From Escherichia phage vB_Eco_F26, in the sequence record OP870145.1: a DNA stretch of 64,000 nucleotides, one strand, 5' to 3'. Below the pieces are notes generated by a model. That model was not told where the DNA came from. It did no database searches and saw only the letters and a program-made list of their open reading frames with translations. Shown piece by piece: positions 15,668-55,551 of the stretch. The position numbers and the translations under genes are program-made. The first letter of the stretch is position 1. Every line of letters starts with the position of its first letter.

Positions 15668-15675
15668 TATTTATA
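15668..15675 (-). promoter_or_regulatory. late promoter TATAAATA upstream of soc
   Basis: Exact TATAAATA on minus strand about 30 nt upstream of soc ATG. Confidence 0.6.
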
Positions 15676-16360
15676 CATCTTCTTTTCTGAATAAGTAAAT
15701 TAAATTCTTAAGAGCTGAACTTGTTACATCATATTTTCCTTTAAGCGCCTTTACAACCGGGCCTGTTGCTGGTTTACCTAAAGAAACCCATAACTCATGT
15801 ATTTCGCTTTTAAGCGGTTCATGCCAATGCGGCGCTTTTCTTTGCGCCCTTGAAGTTCCTTCTGAAATCTTTTTATTTCCGCCATTCGAATAAAACTTTT
15901 TCATTACTTCAGATTGCCGAGCTTTTCGTTCTGCTCTATTTTGGGCTATACGTTGTGAATTCTTCATCCGAGTTTTTGTTTCAGGATTGTTTAATCTAAG
16001 TTTATGTTCTAATCGTTGTTGCTCAGTCCATTTTCTTCCTTCTCCACCCTGACCACCAGGAGAAATATTAATGCAAGTATCTGGGTGTTTACGTTTTAAT
16101 GCAGATATTAGCTCGCGTTCAACTTCATATGATTTTTCTCTAGAACCATGGCATTTTGACCAACGTATTTTATAATTAAAACCATACTTACGATATATGT
16201 TCCATAGTATTTTGCCTGACCCCGGATATTTATCATCATATGGATTTACAATAAATGATTCATGTTTCCCAGCGTACCAAAAGACGCCTTTCGGCGTCCT
16301 AACTTTTACGATATATGTTCTATAAAATTTTTGTTTAATACCCATTATCTTGACGTTCAA
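15671..16360 (-). mobile_element. segF: GIY-YIG-like homing endonuclease (229 aa), segF-like
   Basis: N-terminal GIY-YIG-like motif (RTYIVKV ... GVFWYAGK), basic C-terminal DNA-binding region; between soc and gene 56. Confidence 0.65.
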
Positions 16361-16850
16361 AATTATGTTTATTTTTCAAATAATAAAGTTTAAAGATTTC
16401 TTCCGCATTCATTCCAAGGCCAGCAAACATATTTAATACGAAATGAAATATATCCACAAGCTCAAATTTAATTTCGAGCTGATCTTCTGGGGACATTTCA
16501 TCAATGCGTTTTTCTTGCGCTTCAATATAACGTGCTTTCCATTTTTTCCAAACTGCCGATGCATCTTTTTCACCACGTGACATTTCACCAAGAGAAGTCA
16601 GAAGTTCGCGGAATTCATCATCAATACAGTCTTTTTGTTCACGCATCCAAGAAACAACATCACCGGCAGTTTCTAATTTATCTGGATGATAACAGTATTC
16701 GCGGTCATTTGCTAAACGAATCTGTAAAGATTTCTGCATATCAAGCATTACCTGCAGCGGGTCTTTTTCATCACCGAGAATATCCCAATATTCATTTTGA
16801 GCTTTATCAGCGCCTTCGATCAGTTGACTACATTCGTTGAAATGTGGCAT
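16335..16850 (-). CDS. 56: dCTP pyrophosphatase (dCTPase/dUTPase, MazG-like), 171 aa
   Basis: 171 aa; locus and length match T4 gp56. Confidence 0.8.
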   Translation of the reverse strand: MPHFNECSQLIEGADKAQNEYWDILGDEKDPLQVMLDMQKSLQIRLANDREYCYHPDKLETAGDVVSWMREQKDCIDDEFRELLTSLGEMSRGEKDASAVWKKWKARYIEAQEKRIDEMSPEDQLEIKFELVDIFHFVLNMFAGLGMNAEEIFKLYYLKNKHNFERQDNGY

Positions 16851-16923
16851 GTTATTTTTCCTTTCAATTCATGGGTTAGTAGATTAATTATACAATAAAT
16901 ATATAAAGCAATAAGGAGGACAT

Positions 16924-17124
16924 ATGGTACAAAAATTAATGGCACTTGTTAATGCCATAAAAGGTAATAAGAAACGTATAGCTTTTACTATTACTGCTAT
17001 GATAGGAATTTTACTTTGGAATTTTGTTTTATCGCCAGTTGCTATTGCTCATGGCGTTAGTATTCCAGTAGTTACTCTTGATACATTCGTAGATTTAGCA
17101 TTTGCTTTAGTTGGGTTAATTTAA
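16924..17124 (+). CDS. small hydrophobic protein (66 aa), plus strand
   Basis: Strong SD AAGGAGGA 4 nt before ATG; two predicted TM segments; only convincing plus-strand ORF in window. Confidence 0.4.
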   Translation: MVQKLMALVNAIKGNKKRIAFTITAMIGILLWNFVLSPVAIAHGVSIPVVTLDTFVDLAFALVGLI

Positions 17125-18149
17125 ATCTTAGCATATTTAGATAGCCGCATTTTAGCCATTAACCCCTGGGCAATATTATTTTTCATATATTCCATAATTT
17201 GTTCAGGGGTTGCACCTTCCTTTCTAATCATATCATTAACATCTTTTGATTTCCAGGGAGATTTATCCCAAAACATAACCCTTTCTCCTGCATCAACTAA
17301 TTTAGTCATTCGTTTAATAGTGTCAGGGTGACGAGGTTCATTATCTAAAACCCACACTCGTCTATCTTTAAATGGAACAACTTCTAGGTCTAATTGACCA
17401 CCCGTAATAGCTATACCATTTTCAATAAAAAGTGAATCTATAGGTCCTTCTAGAACATATACATCACCATCTTTAACTCGTTCGACTCCATAAATTTTTG
17501 TTGCTTCAGGATAAGCTTTGATGGTGATATATTTTTGAGGAGCATCTTTCTTTAATGCACGTCCTTGAAACGACTCAGCTTTTCCATTAGCATTATAAAT
17601 TGGAATAACAAGACGAGGCTCAGAAATTTCCTTTTTATATGTTCCCGGTGCTATGCTATTAACTAATTTAGGCCATTCGGTTGTAAACCAAAGATATTTC
17701 CATTTATCCTTTGGAATACAACGAGCTTTTACATATTTTATAATTGGATGGTCTTCCGCCAGTTTATCTAATCTAACACATGACGGAAGAGATTTAATTA
17801 TTTTCTTCTCAGGTTGTTTAGGAAGTTCTTTAGGTTTTTCTACTGGACGACTTTTACCTTTTTCTTTTCTTATTTCAAAGATATACTCACGATATAAATC
17901 AGGTTCAAACTCCTTTAAATATATTCCGATTGGTGCATGATAGTTACAGTTATAACAATGAATATTTCCTTCATTATTATCACCATAATACCATCCACGG
18001 GCTTTATTCTGGTCGGTTTTTGAATCTCCACAAACTGGGCATCTAAACCGTAATTTAAAAGTTGAACTATTATTTACTTGTGTGAATTTAGGTAAATGAG
18101 CTAATGCACGGTATGCAAACTCATTATCAATCCAAGGTATTGATGACAT
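17121..18149 (-). CDS. 61: DNA primase (342 aa)
   Basis: Zinc ribbon CPVCGDS...CYNC plus Toprim region; 342 aa as T4 gp61. Confidence 0.9.
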   Translation of the reverse strand: MSSIPWIDNEFAYRALAHLPKFTQVNNSSTFKLRFRCPVCGDSKTDQNKARGWYYGDNNEGNIHCYNCNYHAPIGIYLKEFEPDLYREYIFEIRKEKGKSRPVEKPKELPKQPEKKIIKSLPSCVRLDKLAEDHPIIKYVKARCIPKDKWKYLWFTTEWPKLVNSIAPGTYKKEISEPRLVIPIYNANGKAESFQGRALKKDAPQKYITIKAYPEATKIYGVERVKDGDVYVLEGPIDSLFIENGIAITGGQLDLEVVPFKDRRVWVLDNEPRHPDTIKRMTKLVDAGERVMFWDKSPWKSKDVNDMIRKEGATPEQIMEYMKNNIAQGLMAKMRLSKYAKI

Positions 18150-20978: not shown

Positions 20979-21341
20979 TTAAAAGAATTTAAATTTTTTC
21001 TTTGACCTTTTATTAAATGCATCTTGTAGTTGCATTGTAATACATTTTTCTACATGAGGAGCTAACTCAGCTTTTCTTTCTTGGTCAAGAACAGCAAAGT
21101 CCATTACGACTTTTCCATCAACCCAATCTAATTTTGTCACATACACAATGTGTGTAGAACCATCTTCTAGTTTAATGACAATCTCCTGGATAACATTTTC
21201 CATAGCGGATTTAATTATCTTAAGAGACTCATTAAAAAGACGTTCTTTTCTTTCTTCTTCCCCCTCCGAAGAGGGGGATTCATCGATAATTTCTAGATCT
21301 AAGTCTAAATCATCTTTATTCATTAAATTCTTCCATATCAC
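20979..21341 (-). CDS. 40: gp40-like protein (120 aa)
   Basis: Locus between 41 and uvsX; acidic N-terminus. Confidence 0.55.
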   Translation of the reverse strand: MIWKNLMNKDDLDLDLEIIDESPSSEGEEERKERLFNESLKIIKSAMENVIQEIVIKLEDGSTHIVYVTKLDWVDGKVVMDFAVLDQERKAELAPHVEKCITMQLQDAFNKRSKKKFKFF

Positions 21342-22497
21342 TTAACTGCTCGAGGTCAGTTTCTAAATCAGCTGCTGATTTACTTTTACTTTCTGGAGAT
21401 TTAAATTTTTCAACCTTTGAGTTAATCAATTCATCAACTTCAGCTTCAACAATTTCATTACTATCAATAGCACCTAACTGATAAGCGCGTTTAATAGCAT
21501 CTCGGAATGGTTGATGCTTAAATAAAGGACCCCAGAATGTAGTGCAGTTGGTATCTTTTGCACGCCAAGATTTTTCTTCGCGAATCATCTCACCGGTTTC
21601 TTCGTCAAGAAATTCACGAGCATACCAGCCATTTTTAGGTTTTACTACAAATCCTAATTCTAGAGCCATATCTAACAGTCCAGAATAAGGATCGATACCA
21701 CCGTCAAATTTAACATCAATAAAGAATTTACTTTTTTCTTTAACGGTACGAGATTTTTCTACATTTAGAACAAATTGATACCCCTGAAGATCAGAACCAT
21801 CTTTAATCTGACGTTTACCGATAATGAATACGGTATCAGCCGAATACATTACGCCTGTACCACCTGTCATCACGGTTTTACTAAACATTTCAATTGTTTC
21901 AATTGTATGGTTAACCGCAACACATGGAATATTTTTAATGCTAAAGTAAGGAGTAACAATACGGAATAATGACTTCAGTGATTTAGCACGAGTCATATCT
22001 GCCACAGATTTTTCATTCAAGGCATCTTCCGTTTCTTTCTTAGAAGCCATATTACCGATTGAGTCGATGAATACAATAACCTTTTCACCGCGATCAATAG
22101 CTTCAAGCTGATTCACCATATCAATTTTCAGCTGTTCAACTGACTGGATTGGCGTATGAATTACTCGTTCTGGGTCAACCCCCATGGATCGCAAATAAGC
22201 TGGAGTAATACCAAATTCGCTATCATAGAATAGACAAACCGCGTCAGGATATTTGTTCAAATACGCCGCAACCATAGTCAAAGACATATTTGATTTAAAG
22301 TGTTTAGAAGGCCCTGCGAAAATAGTTAAACCAGACTGCATACCACCATCAATCGCACCAGAAATAGCAATATTAAGCATTGGAATTTTTGTACGAATTA
22401 CATCCTTTTCATTAAAGAATTTAGATGTAGTCAGTTCAGCAGTCATTTTAGAAGTGGAAGCTTTAATCAAACGGGATTTTAAATCTGCAATAGACAT
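21316..22497 (-). CDS. uvsX: UvsX recombinase (RecA/Rad51 family), 393 aa
   Basis: Walker A GPSKHFKS, RecA fold, acidic C-terminal tail. Confidence 0.9.
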   Translation of the reverse strand: MSIADLKSRLIKASTSKMTAELTTSKFFNEKDVIRTKIPMLNIAISGAIDGGMQSGLTIFAGPSKHFKSNMSLTMVAAYLNKYPDAVCLFYDSEFGITPAYLRSMGVDPERVIHTPIQSVEQLKIDMVNQLEAIDRGEKVIVFIDSIGNMASKKETEDALNEKSVADMTRAKSLKSLFRIVTPYFSIKNIPCVAVNHTIETIEMFSKTVMTGGTGVMYSADTVFIIGKRQIKDGSDLQGYQFVLNVEKSRTVKEKSKFFIDVKFDGGIDPYSGLLDMALELGFVVKPKNGWYAREFLDEETGEMIREEKSWRAKDTNCTTFWGPLFKHQPFRDAIKRAYQLGAIDSNEIVEAEVDELINSKVEKFKSPESKSKSAADLETDLEQLSDMEEFNE

Positions 22498-22574
22498 TCA
22501 TTTTTTCCATAGGCATCATTATATTTTCCTCACTGGTTAAAGATAGAGTAATTATAACACAATAAATTTAGGCA

Positions 22575-23423
22575 TTAATCAACTGCTATTGGATGAATAG
22601 CATTAAACTTATGAAATGCTTCTGATTTTTCTTTACGAGAAACACACATGCGAAGAACCTTTAATGGCTCGTCTTCTTCACCCAACGATTTTCGTTTTTC
22701 AATATTAGAAGTTTTCCAACGAGCTTGCTCTGGAAACTCTCTATTGATTTGTTCAAGCGCTCTATTATGTTTAGAATTACTACGAATTGAACTGCACCCG
22801 CCGGGAGCGTGTGATTTTCCAGATACAACTAGATATTTGAACAAGGCCAAATGCGGATAACCTTGATTAATTAAATTGAGAAATGCATACATATCTTCAC
22901 ATAAATCAATTTTTCCATACCCAATTTGTTCTGTCGTAAGTTTTCCGAGGTCATACCATGTATTCGTGAATCCATATGAGTTTTCACGATAATTACCCCA
23001 AGATGAAGTAATTTTAAAAATTGGTAGACGAGCATGACCGTGATAATACCCGCAATCCATAGCATCCTCAACGTATTGAATTAATTCATAGAACTGTTCA
23101 CGAGTTAATTGATTAATTTTATCTACGCGCCGTTTATCGTCTCTCTTTCGTATTGAACTCATACGAATAGTAGTATCATCATCAATCATCCAGATTCGTT
23201 GACCTGCATACATATCAGTAATTGCTTTACGAGTACCGGCAATTCCATTAACATCATCAGGAATAGTTACAATTTTAGCTCTAGACCCATAAGCATCATA
23301 ATAAGCTTTTTCTTCGTGTTCACGCACTACAATATGTGGTTCATAATCAGTCGGAAACATATCAAGGGCAGAAACTGCCCCGACACGCTGATAACTTGGA
23401 ATTACGAATTGAATCATTTCCAC
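22575..23423 (-). CDS. GT-A fold glycosyltransferase (282 aa) at the beta-glucosyltransferase locus
   Basis: FVIPSYQR N-terminal strand and DxD motif (IWMIDDDTT) typical of GT-A/GT2-like enzymes; lies between uvsX and gene 42. Confidence 0.55.
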   Translation of the reverse strand: MEMIQFVIPSYQRVGAVSALDMFPTDYEPHIVVREHEEKAYYDAYGSRAKIVTIPDDVNGIAGTRKAITDMYAGQRIWMIDDDTTIRMSSIRKRDDKRRVDKINQLTREQFYELIQYVEDAMDCGYYHGHARLPIFKITSSWGNYRENSYGFTNTWYDLGKLTTEQIGYGKIDLCEDMYAFLNLINQGYPHLALFKYLVVSGKSHAPGGCSSIRSNSKHNRALEQINREFPEQARWKTSNIEKRKSLGEEDEPLKVLRMCVSRKEKSEAFHKFNAIHPIAVD

Positions 23424-24154
23424 TCACCTTTATAGTCTTTTTTCACAATATGAGTTTCGCCAGTATTCCACCAATGATCAACCAAGTAAAAATGACGAGA
23501 ATATACATGAAGACTTCCGACATTCCATATAATAGAACCTGCTTTATACTGACGAGTTGAATCGCCTGCATTCAAATCAGATACTAATTTATCTAATACG
23601 TATTTTTGCCATGCATAATCATTACGGAATCCGAAGACCACGTCATTTGAGCGCATGCTTACTACTGCATTGACTTTCTTATCACGAATCAGGTACTGTA
23701 CTGTATTAGTACACATGAAATCTGACATACCATCTTTATTGTAGTCAAATTGCATGGATGGACGAGTATAAATCATGATACCACGTCGAGAATCAGGATT
23801 TTGACCAAGTTCAGCTAAACACATATCATACTGGGCATAGTTATCTTCTGACCAAATAGCCCAACCATAATTCGAGTTAATTTCGCCTTTAGAAGATGCT
23901 ACCTGCTGCCAAATCTTTGGTGTTTCACCTGGAATATCTTTAACAAACAAGCTCTTAGATTTATACCATTCAAGTTCGCGCTGAATGTATTCATCATTAA
24001 GAGCGCCAAAAATAAACGGTTCATCTGCTACAAATGATGCGCCAATAATTTCAATAGTTTTAACACCGGTTTTATCAACTACGAAATCTTTTTCTTTTAA
24101 TGCAAGCCCCAAATGAAGACGGATTTCTTCAACTGTCATAGAGTCACTAATCAT
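23414..24154 (-). CDS. 42: dCMP hydroxymethylase (246 aa)
   Basis: Thymidylate-synthase-like fold; 246 aa as T4 gp42. Confidence 0.85.
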   Translation of the reverse strand: MISDSMTVEEIRLHLGLALKEKDFVVDKTGVKTIEIIGASFVADEPFIFGALNDEYIQRELEWYKSKSLFVKDIPGETPKIWQQVASSKGEINSNYGWAIWSEDNYAQYDMCLAELGQNPDSRRGIMIYTRPSMQFDYNKDGMSDFMCTNTVQYLIRDKKVNAVVSMRSNDVVFGFRNDYAWQKYVLDKLVSDLNAGDSTRQYKAGSIIWNVGSLHVYSRHFYLVDHWWNTGETHIVKKDYKGEWK

Positions 24155-24307
24155 TTAAACCTCAATTGATACATTCATATTTAACTTGTAACAGTAATAA
24201 ACCCCAACCTAAAATAATAGTTGGAATCATAAGAGGAACCGTTACACTATAGTATATACTTATTATAATCATCAAGATTAAAAGCAACACTGCTATAATT
24301 TTGCTTT

Positions 24308-24559
24308 TCATTCCTTCTCTCTGATGATAATTACCTGATTTGGTTGTGCAGACTTTTTAGTTTCATCCGCAATTGACCAAATAAATGTAATAAACCAACC
24401 AATAATTGACCAGTTAAACAGTAAAGACGTGAAAAAGATTCCTACTGTTGATTTTGACCCACGCATCAAGGCGATGAACCATGGAAGCATGTATATAATA
24501 ATAGCCAACACGCCTGAAACTAAAACCATAAAAATTGAACCTGCTACTAAAGTTTCCAT
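24308..24559 (-). CDS. imm: immunity (superinfection exclusion) membrane protein (83 aa)
   Basis: Two TM helices; 83 aa; downstream of gene 43 and upstream of 42 as in T4. Confidence 0.75.
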   Translation of the reverse strand: METLVAGSIFMVLVSGVLAIIIYMLPWFIALMRGSKSTVGIFFTSLLFNWSIIGWFITFIWSIADETKKSAQPNQVIIIREKE

Positions 24560-34487: not shown

Positions 34488-35503
34488 TGTGTTGCCTCTA
34501 CATATAGCTGATTTGCATATTGAATAAGTGCTTCACGATCAGAATCAGTGATGTCTGGAATTGCATTAATGTATTCTTCCATCAACGTCTGAAGAGATTG
34601 AACTTCAACTTCTTCACTGTCATCTGACTCGACAGAGTTATCAATCTTTGACACAACTCGTAATGAATGCACAACTTTTTCTAGTTCAGATTCGAACTTC
34701 GTTAGATTTTTGTCTACTTCAGTTACTATAACACGTACTGATAGATTTGTAAAATCTTTATAGTCAATTTTTCCTTTAAATGGATAATGAATTCTACGAT
34801 GCCAGGTAGTGTTGTTTGGAATAAATTCCATTCGTTCTGTTTCTGTATCAAACATCCAGAACCCACGAGGGTCATTCTCGTCACCTGCAGTTAGTGTCCA
34901 TGGTGTCCCAATATATCTGACGTTAGCAGCCTCAGAGATAGTATGGAAGTGACCAGACCACACTTCTTTATAAGTCTTAAGGAAATCAGGTTCAAGACCG
35001 TGAGATTTCATTCCTTTATAAAAATAAAATCCGTTCAGTTCCCAGTGACCAACACAAAAAGAAGCAGATGAAGTTTTGATGTGTTCAAGAATTTCACCAG
35101 TATTTTCTTCACACATCCAAGGAATCAAATCAATCAAACACCCGTCAAAATCTACTGTAGTAGGCTTATCATATACTTTAACATTAGGATATTTAGCCAA
35201 AAGCTCAGTAGAGGCATTTGGATGCATTACATTTTTATAGTGGAGATCGTGATTTCCTACAATAGTGTGTAATGTAATTCCAGCATCATCAAGCGTTTGA
35301 ACTATTTCACGGGCAAACTCCATAGTTTTATGTGTGATCGCTTTTCTCACATCAAAAATATCACCATATTGAATCCAGGTAGTAATTCCATTTTTCTTAG
35401 AATATTCTATTGCTTGTTTAATTCCATCAATTTGAATACCGCGAATCCACTCATCATCAGCTTTAACGCCTAAATGCCAATCACCCAAGTTTAGTATTTT
35501 CAT
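34484..35503 (-). CDS. 47: recombination nuclease subunit gp47 (Mre11/SbcD-like), 339 aa
   Basis: Calcineurin-like phosphoesterase motifs GDWHLG, GNHD; 339 aa. Confidence 0.9.
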   Translation of the reverse strand: MKILNLGDWHLGVKADDEWIRGIQIDGIKQAIEYSKKNGITTWIQYGDIFDVRKAITHKTMEFAREIVQTLDDAGITLHTIVGNHDLHYKNVMHPNASTELLAKYPNVKVYDKPTTVDFDGCLIDLIPWMCEENTGEILEHIKTSSASFCVGHWELNGFYFYKGMKSHGLEPDFLKTYKEVWSGHFHTISEAANVRYIGTPWTLTAGDENDPRGFWMFDTETERMEFIPNNTTWHRRIHYPFKGKIDYKDFTNLSVRVIVTEVDKNLTKFESELEKVVHSLRVVSKIDNSVESDDSEEVEVQSLQTLMEEYINAIPDITDSDREALIQYANQLYVEATQ

Positions 35504-36104
35504 GGTGTCTTTTCCATCCTAATTTAGCTGCTTTTGAAACTAGTTCTTTAATTTTTCCTTTTGTCCATTCAGGACCAGGAGGTTCATGACATAACATTTG
35601 CTTAACTCCGTTATTATACCATTTTTTACCTTTATTATGTGATGAAGCTTTAAATTTATTTGACCTTCCTTTTACATAACCTTCTGGAATATAAGGCAAA
35701 AAGGCAGATTTTCCTGTTAATGGATCATGTGAATGTATATTTCCTTTACAATTATGAGAACCATATAATGGATGATTTTGTCCTTTGTTATCTCTTCCAA
35801 ATGAACCTTTTGGAGCAGCATATGACATATTAAAGAATAATGGATTTTTAACTGCATCATGCAATCGTTGATAATATAACTCGCATTTAATAGCTTCTTC
35901 ACGCGTATCAAATTCAGCTAAAATGCATGAATCAAATAAGTGAGGATTATCTGAAAGCTCTTTATTATAAATTTTCTTATACTTTTTAGATAAAACTGAA
36001 CCATGATATCCAGCTAAATGCCTATCTAAAGACGTAGATCCAATATAAAAAGGAGGAAGTTTATCTCCACTATATATTGTTAAATAAGTTATATATTTTT
36101 TCAT
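35481..36104 (-). mobile_element. GIY-YIG-like endonuclease (207 aa) between gene 47 and alpha-gt
   Basis: N-terminal YITYL...PPFYIGSTS (GIY-YIG-like), NUMOD3-like repeats (NHPLYGSHN). Confidence 0.5.
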
Positions 36105-36264: not shown

Positions 36265-36282
36265 AAAGGGCCGAAGCCCTTT
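36265..36282 (-). terminator. GC hairpin with tetraloop overlapping alpha-gt stop; followed by MotA-box-like + TATAAT
   Basis: aaagggc/gcccttt stem around cgaa; downstream TAGCTTTA-N12-TATAAT. Confidence 0.45.
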
Positions 36283-37483
36283 ATTTTGTAATAATGTCAA
36301 ACTGTTCTTTAAAGCAGAAGCTTGAATCTTGATGCTGATACAAAAATTCATACGCTTTTTCTCGCTCACGGTCATAAAGAGCTCGGTCAGATGACAGTTC
36401 TTTAATACGTTCAAATGTTGATTCCATGTCATTTTCATCAAACCAAACGATACCGCTATCGTGTGAAATTAATGGAGTGTTATCAACACGGAATTTTAAA
36501 TTTTCGCCAGTAGATTTCCAAAATACTGGAATTGTTCCACATGCGCCAAGCTCGAGATGAGTATATTCTAAAGAACGTTGTAGATATTTTTTATCTAATT
36601 TACTCAGCTGATAACCAAATCCGGATTTACTCATGCGTTCAAGCATTTCGCTATTTACATAACGGTCGAGAATTTGCGTTGGCAAATTAGGAGCAATTTT
36701 AATTTGGTCTACTTGATGAAGACGATAATACTCGTATGGAATTCCTTTTTCTTTAATAGGAATGAACGCTGGAGAACGTTCCAGACCTTCCATAATAGTA
36801 CTTAGTCCTGCAGGTTTAAGATGTTTTTCATGAAAATCAAACATCTGATAAAAGCCTTTCCATGTAGTAGTACGACCAATCCAACGGTTGATATTCATGT
36901 TAATTTCAGAAACATCTTTCCAGTAGGTTGACCGAACCTTCGCAATATCCATAGGAGGCTGAAAATTATATACTGTTGGTGCTTCTTCAATATCATCAAA
37001 CAGAGAAACAGTTTCTGGATACCATTCTTTCATCAGAACTTTATTAAAATCGCCATTATCAGAATGACTAAAAATAACATCAGCTCGACGAACAGTTTCT
37101 TCTAATCCCAAATTTCGACGCAAAGAAAGAACAGAATGATCATGCTGATAAACTACAACACGAATAGAAGGTTTAATATTATCTAAAAGTTTTTTATAGT
37201 TATTAATCGTGGCTTCTTGAACGGAAGTAGCAGGAACAGAATTAATAATTAGAATATCACAATCATTTACCAGCTTAAGTGTTTTATCGTATTCTTTAGC
37301 TAAAATAACTGGAATTGAAAATGATTTATAATCATGCGCGCAATTACGGGTAAATGATTTATCTTTAGCATAAACCAAAGTTACTTCATGACCATTTTTA
37401 ATAAACCAATCACGCTGCTCAAGAGAAAATTTAGTTACACCGCAACCTTCAAGACCCCGAGCCAGAAAAATGCATACTTTCAT
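36281..37483 (-). CDS. a-gt: alpha-glucosyltransferase (400 aa)
   Basis: 400 aa; locus between 47 and 55; GT-B-like architecture. Confidence 0.75.
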   Translation of the reverse strand: MKVCIFLARGLEGCGVTKFSLEQRDWFIKNGHEVTLVYAKDKSFTRNCAHDYKSFSIPVILAKEYDKTLKLVNDCDILIINSVPATSVQEATINNYKKLLDNIKPSIRVVVYQHDHSVLSLRRNLGLEETVRRADVIFSHSDNGDFNKVLMKEWYPETVSLFDDIEEAPTVYNFQPPMDIAKVRSTYWKDVSEINMNINRWIGRTTTWKGFYQMFDFHEKHLKPAGLSTIMEGLERSPAFIPIKEKGIPYEYYRLHQVDQIKIAPNLPTQILDRYVNSEMLERMSKSGFGYQLSKLDKKYLQRSLEYTHLELGACGTIPVFWKSTGENLKFRVDNTPLISHDSGIVWFDENDMESTFERIKELSSDRALYDREREKAYEFLYQHQDSSFCFKEQFDIITK

Positions 37484-41812: not shown

Positions 41813-42283
41813 TTAATCATGTTTCCACACCCCATCGGTATTTGACCAAAGCCGCTGATTATCTGATCCTCTCCACAGCTTTTTAGTCGGAAGATTTTTC
41901 TCATACTTCCCATCAATAATAACATCAACATATTTAAGCATTTCTAGTTGTTTAATATCTTCAAACTTATATCCTGTCCACAACCAAATGCTTTTATTGG
42001 GATAAAGATTTTTTACTGTTTGAACGATGCAATGAATCACGTCTCTGTTATCAGGATAAAGAGGGTCACCTCCGGTTATAGTTAATCCTTCTATATAATC
42101 ATTATTCAAACATTCAATTAATTGTTCTAGTGTTTCACCAGTGAATGGAACGCCATTTCTAGCATTCCATGTTGATTTATTATAACACCCTTCGCATTTA
42201 TGCAAACAACCTGTAACGAAAAGAACGGTCCTGCATCCAGGACCATTAACAAAGCAGCACGGGTATATTCTGTCATAATTCAT
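41813..42283 (-). CDS. nrdG: anaerobic ribonucleotide reductase activating protein, radical SAM (156 aa from MNYDRIYP)
   Basis: Radical-SAM cysteine cluster CLHKCEGC. Confidence 0.8.
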   Translation of the reverse strand: MNYDRIYPCCFVNGPGCRTVLFVTGCLHKCEGCYNKSTWNARNGVPFTGETLEQLIECLNNDYIEGLTITGGDPLYPDNRDVIHCIVQTVKNLYPNKSIWLWTGYKFEDIKQLEMLKYVDVIIDGKYEKNLPTKKLWRGSDNQRLWSNTDGVWKHD

Positions 42284-43110
42284 AATAATATCCAATTTTT
42301 CCAAGCTTCATCAGTAGAATTACAGCGTTTTAGTATAAGATGTCTAGAAACTTTTATGGCATTTGAGCACTTTTTAATTGAATCATATTTAATACCGTCA
42401 ACTGAAACGGTTTTGCTAGTTGGAGAAATTTTTCCATACATTGGATTTTTTGAACCAACTTGAAGTCCTTTTAAAGCTTTTGAAAGCTTTTGTCTAGATT
42501 CCAATGACATGGGAGAATTCTTTTTACCTTCAATAATTCGCTTGCGATGAAGTTCGCGTTCTTCTTCACTCAAAGAATTGTAATATTTTTTAACACCGTT
42601 TGATATAGATAATTTATCTTTCTCAGACCGCTCTCCAGCTAATTTACTTCTAACATCTTTTCGCTTCATAGCTATGCTTACAGCTTTATTTAAATTTGCT
42701 TGATGCTCTGGCGTACGTTTATATTTCTTTAAAGCACGTGAAATAGCTATTTTAGTTTCTTCTGTTCTCTTTTTACCTTTATTTGCTAAACTATTTTTGC
42801 GGCGATGCTCAAGTGTCTGTTCATAGGCAGTTCCACCTTTTCCACCAGGTTTAATATTATATGTGTTTTCTTTTAGACAATACTCTTCGGTTACAAGTTC
42901 AGCTTCTTTATCATACATTTGTTTTTCATTATCAAAAACATGTAAAATTTCTTTATTAAAATTTTTTCTACCATATTTTAATAAAGCGGCACGAATCAAT
43001 GTTCCTGATCCCATATAACCGTCATTTATGTTATCGGTGCTATGCGCACCGATATATTCCTTTGAATTAATTATATTTGTTATTTTATAAATTATATAAT
43101 ACCTATGCAT
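42280..43110 (-). mobile_element. GIY-YIG homing endonuclease (276 aa) between nrdG and nrdD
   Basis: N-terminal YYIIYKITN...KEYIGAHS motif; basic C-terminal region. Confidence 0.65.
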
Positions 43111-54831: not shown

Positions 54832-55551
54832 TTAGGATTCTTCTAAATGTCTTTTCTGAAAAGTTGATACCATACTACGATACGGTTCATTTGGATATCC
54901 GTGTTTTATAGCTTCCTTTGTAAATTTTCTCCATCCATATTTAGTTTCTTTCCAAAGCTCGAATAATTCATCTTCATACTGCCATATAGTTAAATGAGAA
55001 CGCTTTGCAGCTTTAATTCCATTAATATGCTTTTCTTTTACTGTAGGATTGCTTAGTTTCTTTTTAATAATATTACTAACTTTTCTAACAAAAACTGGGT
55101 CCTTATATCGTTGCGAAGTTTTTATTGAAGTGTTTAATTTAGCTTCCGGCGTGGATGTGACCTCTTTCATCTTTTTCTTCATATGCTGTATATGATTAGG
55201 ATTTTTCCATAAATTTATAGAATGCTTTTTGCATTTTATCCTAGTTTCATCTGCAACCTTTCCTCCTTCACCCCCGTATGACAGGTTAACACAGTTTTTT
55301 CCATATTTCAATTTACCTGCCATGATATATAATATTTCAGCTTGTACCATTTTATCATAATTATCAAAAACTTCTAAAACCGTTTTTGATAATATGTGGT
55401 CATTTGACACTTTTACACGTTCTATATAATTTCCACTACCAACATACGAATCATTGATGTTATTAGTTATATGTCGACCATAATAGTATTTCTTAATACC
55501 TGTCTTTAAATTTAATATTTCAGTTTTATAGATAGTAAAATATTTTTTCAT
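54832..55551 (-). mobile_element. possible GIY-YIG-like endonuclease (239 aa)
   Basis: N-terminal YFTIYKTE...KKYYYGRH; basic C-terminal half. Confidence 0.4.

Follow-up and report, generated by a model that had tools for sequence, protein, structure and literature searches.

The sugar carried by hydroxymethylcytosine (hmC) decides which host defences attack T-even phages. In T4, the interval between uvsX and gene 42 holds segA and a 351-residue beta-glucosyltransferase (b-gt; PF09198, PDB 1JG7), whereas in T2 and T6 an enzyme of family PF20691 glucosylates hmC that is already alpha-glucosylated, producing the gentiobiosyl base (PMC13216743, NAR 2026). According to the same study, most phages with these enzymes pair an alpha- or beta-glucosyltransferase (alpha-GT, beta-GT) with a TET-associated glycosyltransferase (TAGT); the T4 pair of alpha-GT and beta-GT is limited to 6 of 753 genomes, and alpha-GT with TAGT is the common state in Tequatrovirus. 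Its AlphaFold3 model of T6 TAGT has the GT-A fold and clusters as a sister group beside GT2, for which TarP is cited. The position of TAGT is syntenic with that of T4 b-gt (PMC13390438, AEM 2026).

The contribution of this enzyme, encoded by ba-gt, to the chemistry of phage DNA is documented by genetics and by direct analysis. In the case of T6, loss of ba-gt leaves alpha-glucosyl-hmC only and renders the phage more sensitive to the glycosylase Brig1 (PMC11078745, Nature 2024), while a 2026 preprint with a ba-gt mutant of the same kind reports that BapA is unable to remove glucose from gentiobiosyl-hmC. Gentiobiose is not strippable by BapA/Brig3, and GmrSD-type enzymes cut all these forms. 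HPLC/MS of Durham-collection phages gave a ratio of about 1:2:2 for hmC, alpha-glucosyl-hmC and gentiobiosyl-hmC in EL, BGP and Geo, where the beta form is lacking, and a composition of about 1/3 hmC and 2/3 gentiobiosyl-hmC in Solly, TB37, Some and others (PMC13390438). Gentiobiosyl-hmC amounts to 5% in T2 and 72% in T6, and since their genes are near-identical, the extent of di-glucosylation is not readable from gene presence.

The corresponding locus of Escherichia phage vB_Eco_F26 was analyzed within a 64,000-nucleotide stretch of record OP870145.1, referred to here as the window; its features are summarized in Table 1. A reading made beforehand from the letters alone (the sequence-only reading) had pointed to an ORF between uvsX and the dCMP hydroxymethylase gene carrying the motifs FVIPSYQR and IWMIDDD, and both motifs and both neighbours were found. 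The minus-strand ORF at 22575-23423 encodes 282 residues from a GTG, and an ATG at 23417, six bases downstream, gives a gene of 843 nt. This ATG and the TGA of gene 42, the upstream neighbour, overlap in the four bases ATGA, with GGTGAG ahead of the ATG. Since the annotated start in BGP, Solly and T2 is the ATG matching 23417, we take it as the start of ba-gt. The protein was recovered by tblastn in 688 phage records, with coverage of at least 80% in 684 of them, which rules out a chance reading frame. A promoter and terminator scan of 22300-24400 gave no more hits than shuffled sequence.

Table 1. Positions of ba-gt, its motifs and the pathway genes in the window
Feature	Position	Strand	Basis
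ba-gt / ggt / TAGT (RefSeq and PHROG label beta-glucosyl-HMC-alpha-glucosyltransferase)	22575..23417	minus	280 aa plus TAA stop; PF20691, PHROG 842, identity to PST/BGP/Geo/EL
FVIPSYQR (residues 4-11), N-terminal beta-strand with nucleotide-binding-type motif	23385..23408	minus	I6, P7, S8, Y9, R11 invariant; strand E3-7 in high-pLDDT part
DDD (D79-D81), putative DxD-type metal/UDP-sugar motif	23175..23183	minus	GATGATGAT on coding strand; three Asp invariant in 10 homologues
E174-D175 (LCEDMYAF), candidate catalytic base of an inverting GT-A enzyme	22893..22898	minus	D175 invariant; E174 at least 90% conserved
S202-H203, allele-specific pair just before invariant P205-G206-G207	22809..22814	minus	allele comparison, family alignment; low-confidence loop 194-211
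gene 42, dCMP hydroxymethylase (makes hm-dCMP)	23414..24154	minus	97% identity to T4 gp42; Pfam Thymidylat_synt 1e-15; PHROG 160
uvsX recombinase, downstream neighbour	21316..22497	minus	90% identity to T4 UvsX; PHROG 97, 8e-110; fixes locus synteny
alpha-glucosyltransferase (a-gt)	36281..37483	minus	Pfam PF11440 AGT 2e-240; PDB 1xv5/1y6f T4 AGT 8e-260
probable gene 56 dCTPase/dUTPase (excludes unmodified dCTP from DNA)	16335..16850	minus	PHROG 173 NTP pyrophosphohydrolase 1e-40

Profile and homology searches agree on the identity of the product. The sole Pfam match is PF20691 (TAGT), at 39.1 bits against a gathering cut-off of 27.5 and covering profile positions 2-205 of 205; PHROG 842 is matched at 4e-88, and NCBIfam has no model for the protein. 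At the DNA level, many Tequatrovirus genomes share a 1.2-kb region with the window, 99.3% identical. Protein identity by tblastn is 100% to Yersinia phage PST and to Escherichia phage BGP, against 96.8% to T2 and 96.1% to T6; it falls to about 64-66% in T4-like phages of Klebsiella, Enterobacter and Salmonella, and one Serratia phage stands at 48%. The proteins of Geo and EL are also 100% identical to that of the window, and DNA composition has been measured for BGP, Geo and EL. The likeness to the T2 and T6 enzymes extends over all 280 residues (9 differences from T2, 11 from T6) and includes the length, the gene order 42 / ba-gt / uvsX, the family-invariant residues and the alpha-gt partner. 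The comparison with T6 beta-alpha-gt, proposed beforehand, and the family profile search support the suggested second-glucose enzyme of T2/T6 type, as does the GT-A model described below. We therefore assign the ORF, with a probability of roughly 0.95, to the T2/T6-type glucosyl-DNA beta-glucosyltransferases, which would make gentiobiosyl-hmC together with alpha-gt. The T6/T2 activity is classified as EC 2.4.1.28.

The ORF takes exactly the place that b-gt has in T4, and some database records label it 'beta-glucosyltransferase'; its product could be read as a functional replacement of the T4 enzyme, adding a single beta-glucose to hmC left by alpha-gt. The two enzymes would also have in common the UDP-glucose donor and the beta configuration of the bond made in modified phage DNA. 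We regard this as extremely improbable. BLASTP detects no similarity between T4 b-gt and the window protein (E=4.1), and tblastn finds no b-gt homologue anywhere in the 64-kb window (best E=1.4), so that the strong similarity to T4 beta-gt on which the sequence-only reading would have fallen is absent. PF09198, which T4 b-gt matches at 9e-98, is not matched by the window protein, for which Pfam gives TAGT alone. Nor is there a relation in fold: T4 beta-gt is a GT-B enzyme encoded beside segA and acting on bare hmC, whereas the window enzyme is GT-A-like in its predicted structure and its acceptor would be alpha-glucosyl-hmC. The composition of DNA argues in the same direction, since phages with the identical protein contain no beta-glucosyl-hmC and leave about 20-33% of hmC unmodified (PMC13390438), and T6 without the gene keeps alpha-glucosyl-hmC at about 75%.

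A second alternative accepts the family but supposes a weak (hypomorphic) allele such as T2 seems to have, in which case the DNA would be essentially alpha-monoglucosylated with a few percent gentiobiosyl-hmC. The T2 gene is 96.8% identical, yet accompanies only about 5% gentiobiosyl-hmC, and the window protein carries H203, beside the invariant PGG loop, where most homologues have Q. However, it retains R11, which is His in T2, along with every family-invariant residue, and BGP, Geo and EL reach about 40% gentiobiosyl-hmC with exactly the same protein, so a hypomorph of this kind is very unlikely. Neither R11H of T2 nor the lesions of the T6 records (an amber at codon 10; a deletion of D81) are present in the window.

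Ten sequences were aligned with MAFFT (the window protein and nine homologues, at 97% to 27% identity by BLASTP, the lowest being 31% in the alignment); the homologue search of a large protein collection had given 11 clusters only. The structure predicted from this shallow alignment has a mean pLDDT of 68.9, a moderate value probably due to the alignment depth, and a pTM of 0.71; the first 80 residues are predicted with confidence, and the loops 126-151 and 194-211 fall under pLDDT 50. The model forms a single Rossmann-like alpha/beta/alpha domain that matches solved GT-A structures, in agreement with the proposal that the enzyme is GT-A and not akin to T4 beta-gt. By sequence, a PDB search gave chance matches only (E above 1) and hence no solved structure of the family, and a Pfam scan at E up to 10 with all 10 aligned homologues gave neither Glycos_transf_2 nor any glycosyltransferase family besides TAGT, which makes the link to GT2 a structural one only. 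Sequence identity is 7-16% in comparison with GT2 enzymes of the inverting GT-A kind, S. aureus TarP and TarS among them; unlike these, the window enzyme has DNA as its acceptor.

Thirteen positions are invariant in the alignment: I6, P7, S8, Y9, R11, D79, D80, D81, D175, G206, G207, S209 and R212. Their pattern agrees with a nucleotide-binding strand like that of GT2, a metal site of DxD type and an ED dipeptide supplying an acidic base, and it is from this agreement that we infer the residue roles. By analogy with GT2 enzymes, FVIPSYQR may take part in UDP binding. The motif IWMIDDD (residues 75-81) places D79-D80-D81 after the central beta-strand E74-77, where the three aspartates would bind the metal and the UDP-sugar, as the modelled GT-A fold suggests. 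As the product is beta and the donor is UDP-alpha-glucose, the mechanism must be an inverting one, like that of GT2, and E174-D175 is a candidate for its catalytic base.

The pathway genes needed for such an enzyme are present in the window. The alpha-glucosyltransferase gene had been named beforehand at the position given in Table 1 and was confirmed there, its product differing little, in the PDB search, from the T4 enzyme of known crystal structure; with gene 42, it would provide both hmC and the alpha-glucosylated acceptor for TAGT. The probable gene 56 adjoins the primase gene, matching T4-like genomes. In the proposed order of events, for which these genes are at hand and the chemistry is established T-even biology, gene 42 would produce hm-dCMP and the dCTPase would remove dCTP. 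After replication, alpha-gt would attach an alpha-linked glucose to 5-hmC in DNA, and TAGT, acting as an inverting GT-A enzyme with UDP-glucose and the DDD metal site, would join a further glucose to the alpha-glucose by a beta-1,6 bond, giving gentiobiosyl-hmC. The evidence for this last step is orthology in the window, joined to the activity known from T6 genetics and from the DNA of identical-protein phages. Part of hmC would stay bare because of the missing beta-gt, as the tblastn result and the data of PMC13390438 together suggest, and beta-monoglucosyl-hmC is not expected for the same reason; the virion DNA would then be a mixture of hmC, alpha-glucosyl-hmC and gentiobiosyl-hmC. The identity and synteny of the gene, the alpha-gt and gene 42 that accompany it, the lack of beta-gt and the GT-A-like model are observations on the window itself; the chemistry is drawn from the literature, as is the DNA composition of phages with the identical protein.

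With alpha-gt and ba-gt but without beta-gt, vB_Eco_F26 belongs to the common T2/T6 modification class, an assignment useful for annotation and host-range prediction. The modification pattern unlike T4 that had been anticipated therefore stands as far as the gene set is concerned (alpha-gt and TAGT, no beta-gt), but not as a departure from the norm, since this is the common Tequatrovirus state. The ba-gt of the window is an already known enzyme in its usual place and in the commonest Tequatrovirus configuration. No new biology follows, as the gene, fold, genetics and DNA chemistry of identical-protein phages are all published; the idea behind the sequence-only reading, its structural rationale and the experimental check it proposed are likewise in the literature, nucleoside mass spectrometry having revealed gentiobiosyl-hmC in phages with the identical protein (PMC13390438).

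Two alleles of ba-gt can be distinguished among the phages with known DNA composition. The window type, shared as an identical protein by BGP, Geo and EL, has V50, I89, K95, R97, I101, S202 and H203 and is associated in these three phages with the ratio of about 1:2:2; the T6-like type of TB37, Solly and Some has I50, M89, R95, C97, V101, A202 and Q203 and is associated with about 1/3 hmC and 2/3 gentiobiosyl-hmC. At position 203, two residues before P-G-G, Q is found in most homologues and H only in the window allele. The correlation compares three phages with three that are phylogenetically non-independent, and it is only a tentative, rather doubtful suggestion that the window allele is a partial-activity variant setting the ratio near 1:2:2 in place of the near-complete conversion of the T6-like type, with R11H likewise explaining the 5% of T2. 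If this were true, the window phage would be a natural recombinant separating the contributions of the two enzymes, and its DNA pattern would inform which of them sets the ratio.

The a-gt product of the window differs from that of Solly at 11 residues and from that of BGP at about 30, and this combination of a BGP-type ba-gt with a Solly-type a-gt makes the exact glucosylation ratio of vB_Eco_F26 not predictable. Between the primase gene (17121-18149) and the dCTPase gene lie only about 270 bp (16851-17120), so that dam and its neighbouring ORF are absent at this locus; BGP has dam and one extra ORF between primase and the dCTPase-type gene, T4 also has dam in this region, and Solly, like the window, lacks it. 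With a ba-gt allele of BGP type in Solly-like surroundings, the window is a mosaic.

The reference records of T2 and T6 contain several changes in the same gene. The T2 protein differs from the TB37/Solly allele, which looks fully active, by R11H and P251S only. In the T2 record AP018813, the His at residue 11 lies at locus positions 2531-2533, equivalent to window 23385-23387, a residue that is Arg in the window and throughout the 10 aligned homologues; the only records with a 100% match to an 81-nt stretch carrying the T2 His codon are seven of T2 and that of SV76. It is plausible that R11H, within the invariant IPSYQR motif, causes the low gentiobiosyl content of T2 relative to T6. The T6 record MH550421 has an amber at codon 10 (CAG to TAG, locus 2528-2530) that is unique among 472 records, and its CDS is consequently annotated from a later Met. 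In another T6 record, AP018814, a 3-nt deletion at about locus 1245 removes one GAT of GATGATGAT, and with it D81, one Asp of the invariant DDD; the RefSeq copy NC_054907, which has the same record length and coordinates, probably carries this deletion too. The lesions of the T6 records may be stock mutations or sequencing errors. An A-run of T2 a-gt (bases 288-296) is described in a 2025 preprint as a reversible frameshift 'contingency locus'. The corresponding run of the window (gene nt 289-294) is A6 (AAAAAA), and a second A6 lies at nt 892-897.

The spacer between ba-gt and uvsX (22498-22574) measures 77 bp only and thus leaves no room for segA. On its minus strand it contains TGTTATAAT, an extended -10-like sequence with a MotA box-like TGCCTAA about 12 nt upstream, and a mini-ORF of 7 codons, ATGATGCCTATGGAAAAAATGA, with a stop that overlaps the ATG of uvsX. 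These elements may represent a middle promoter and leader for uvsX, although the sigma-70 scan does not list the TGTTATAAT element.

The earlier statement that no segA-like gene is present holds for this locus but not for the window as a whole, where four GIY-YIG seg-like ORFs lie elsewhere; SegA-like genes are thus present, only not in the place next to the glucosyltransferase gene. The idea that a segA-like gene had been replaced beside ba-gt was dropped, the interval being simply short. Between gene 47 and alpha-gt, a minus-strand ORF at 35481-36104 encodes a 207-residue putative homing endonuclease of GIY-YIG type (Pfam GIY-YIG 3e-4, just under the cut-off; PHROG 10820 1e-94). At the equivalent position BGP and Solly have a 46-aa ORF only, and about 67 phage records contain the endonuclease with no less than 95% identity, which points to a sporadic mobile insert beside a DNA-modification gene. 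Three further seg-like GIY-YIG homing-endonuclease ORFs of PHROG 314 lie on the minus strand at 42280-43110, 54832-55551 and 15671-16360. The one at 42280-43110 is 49% identical to T4 SegA over 115 residues, and the one at 15671-16360 abuts the dCTPase gene, a placement presumably like that of segF in T4.
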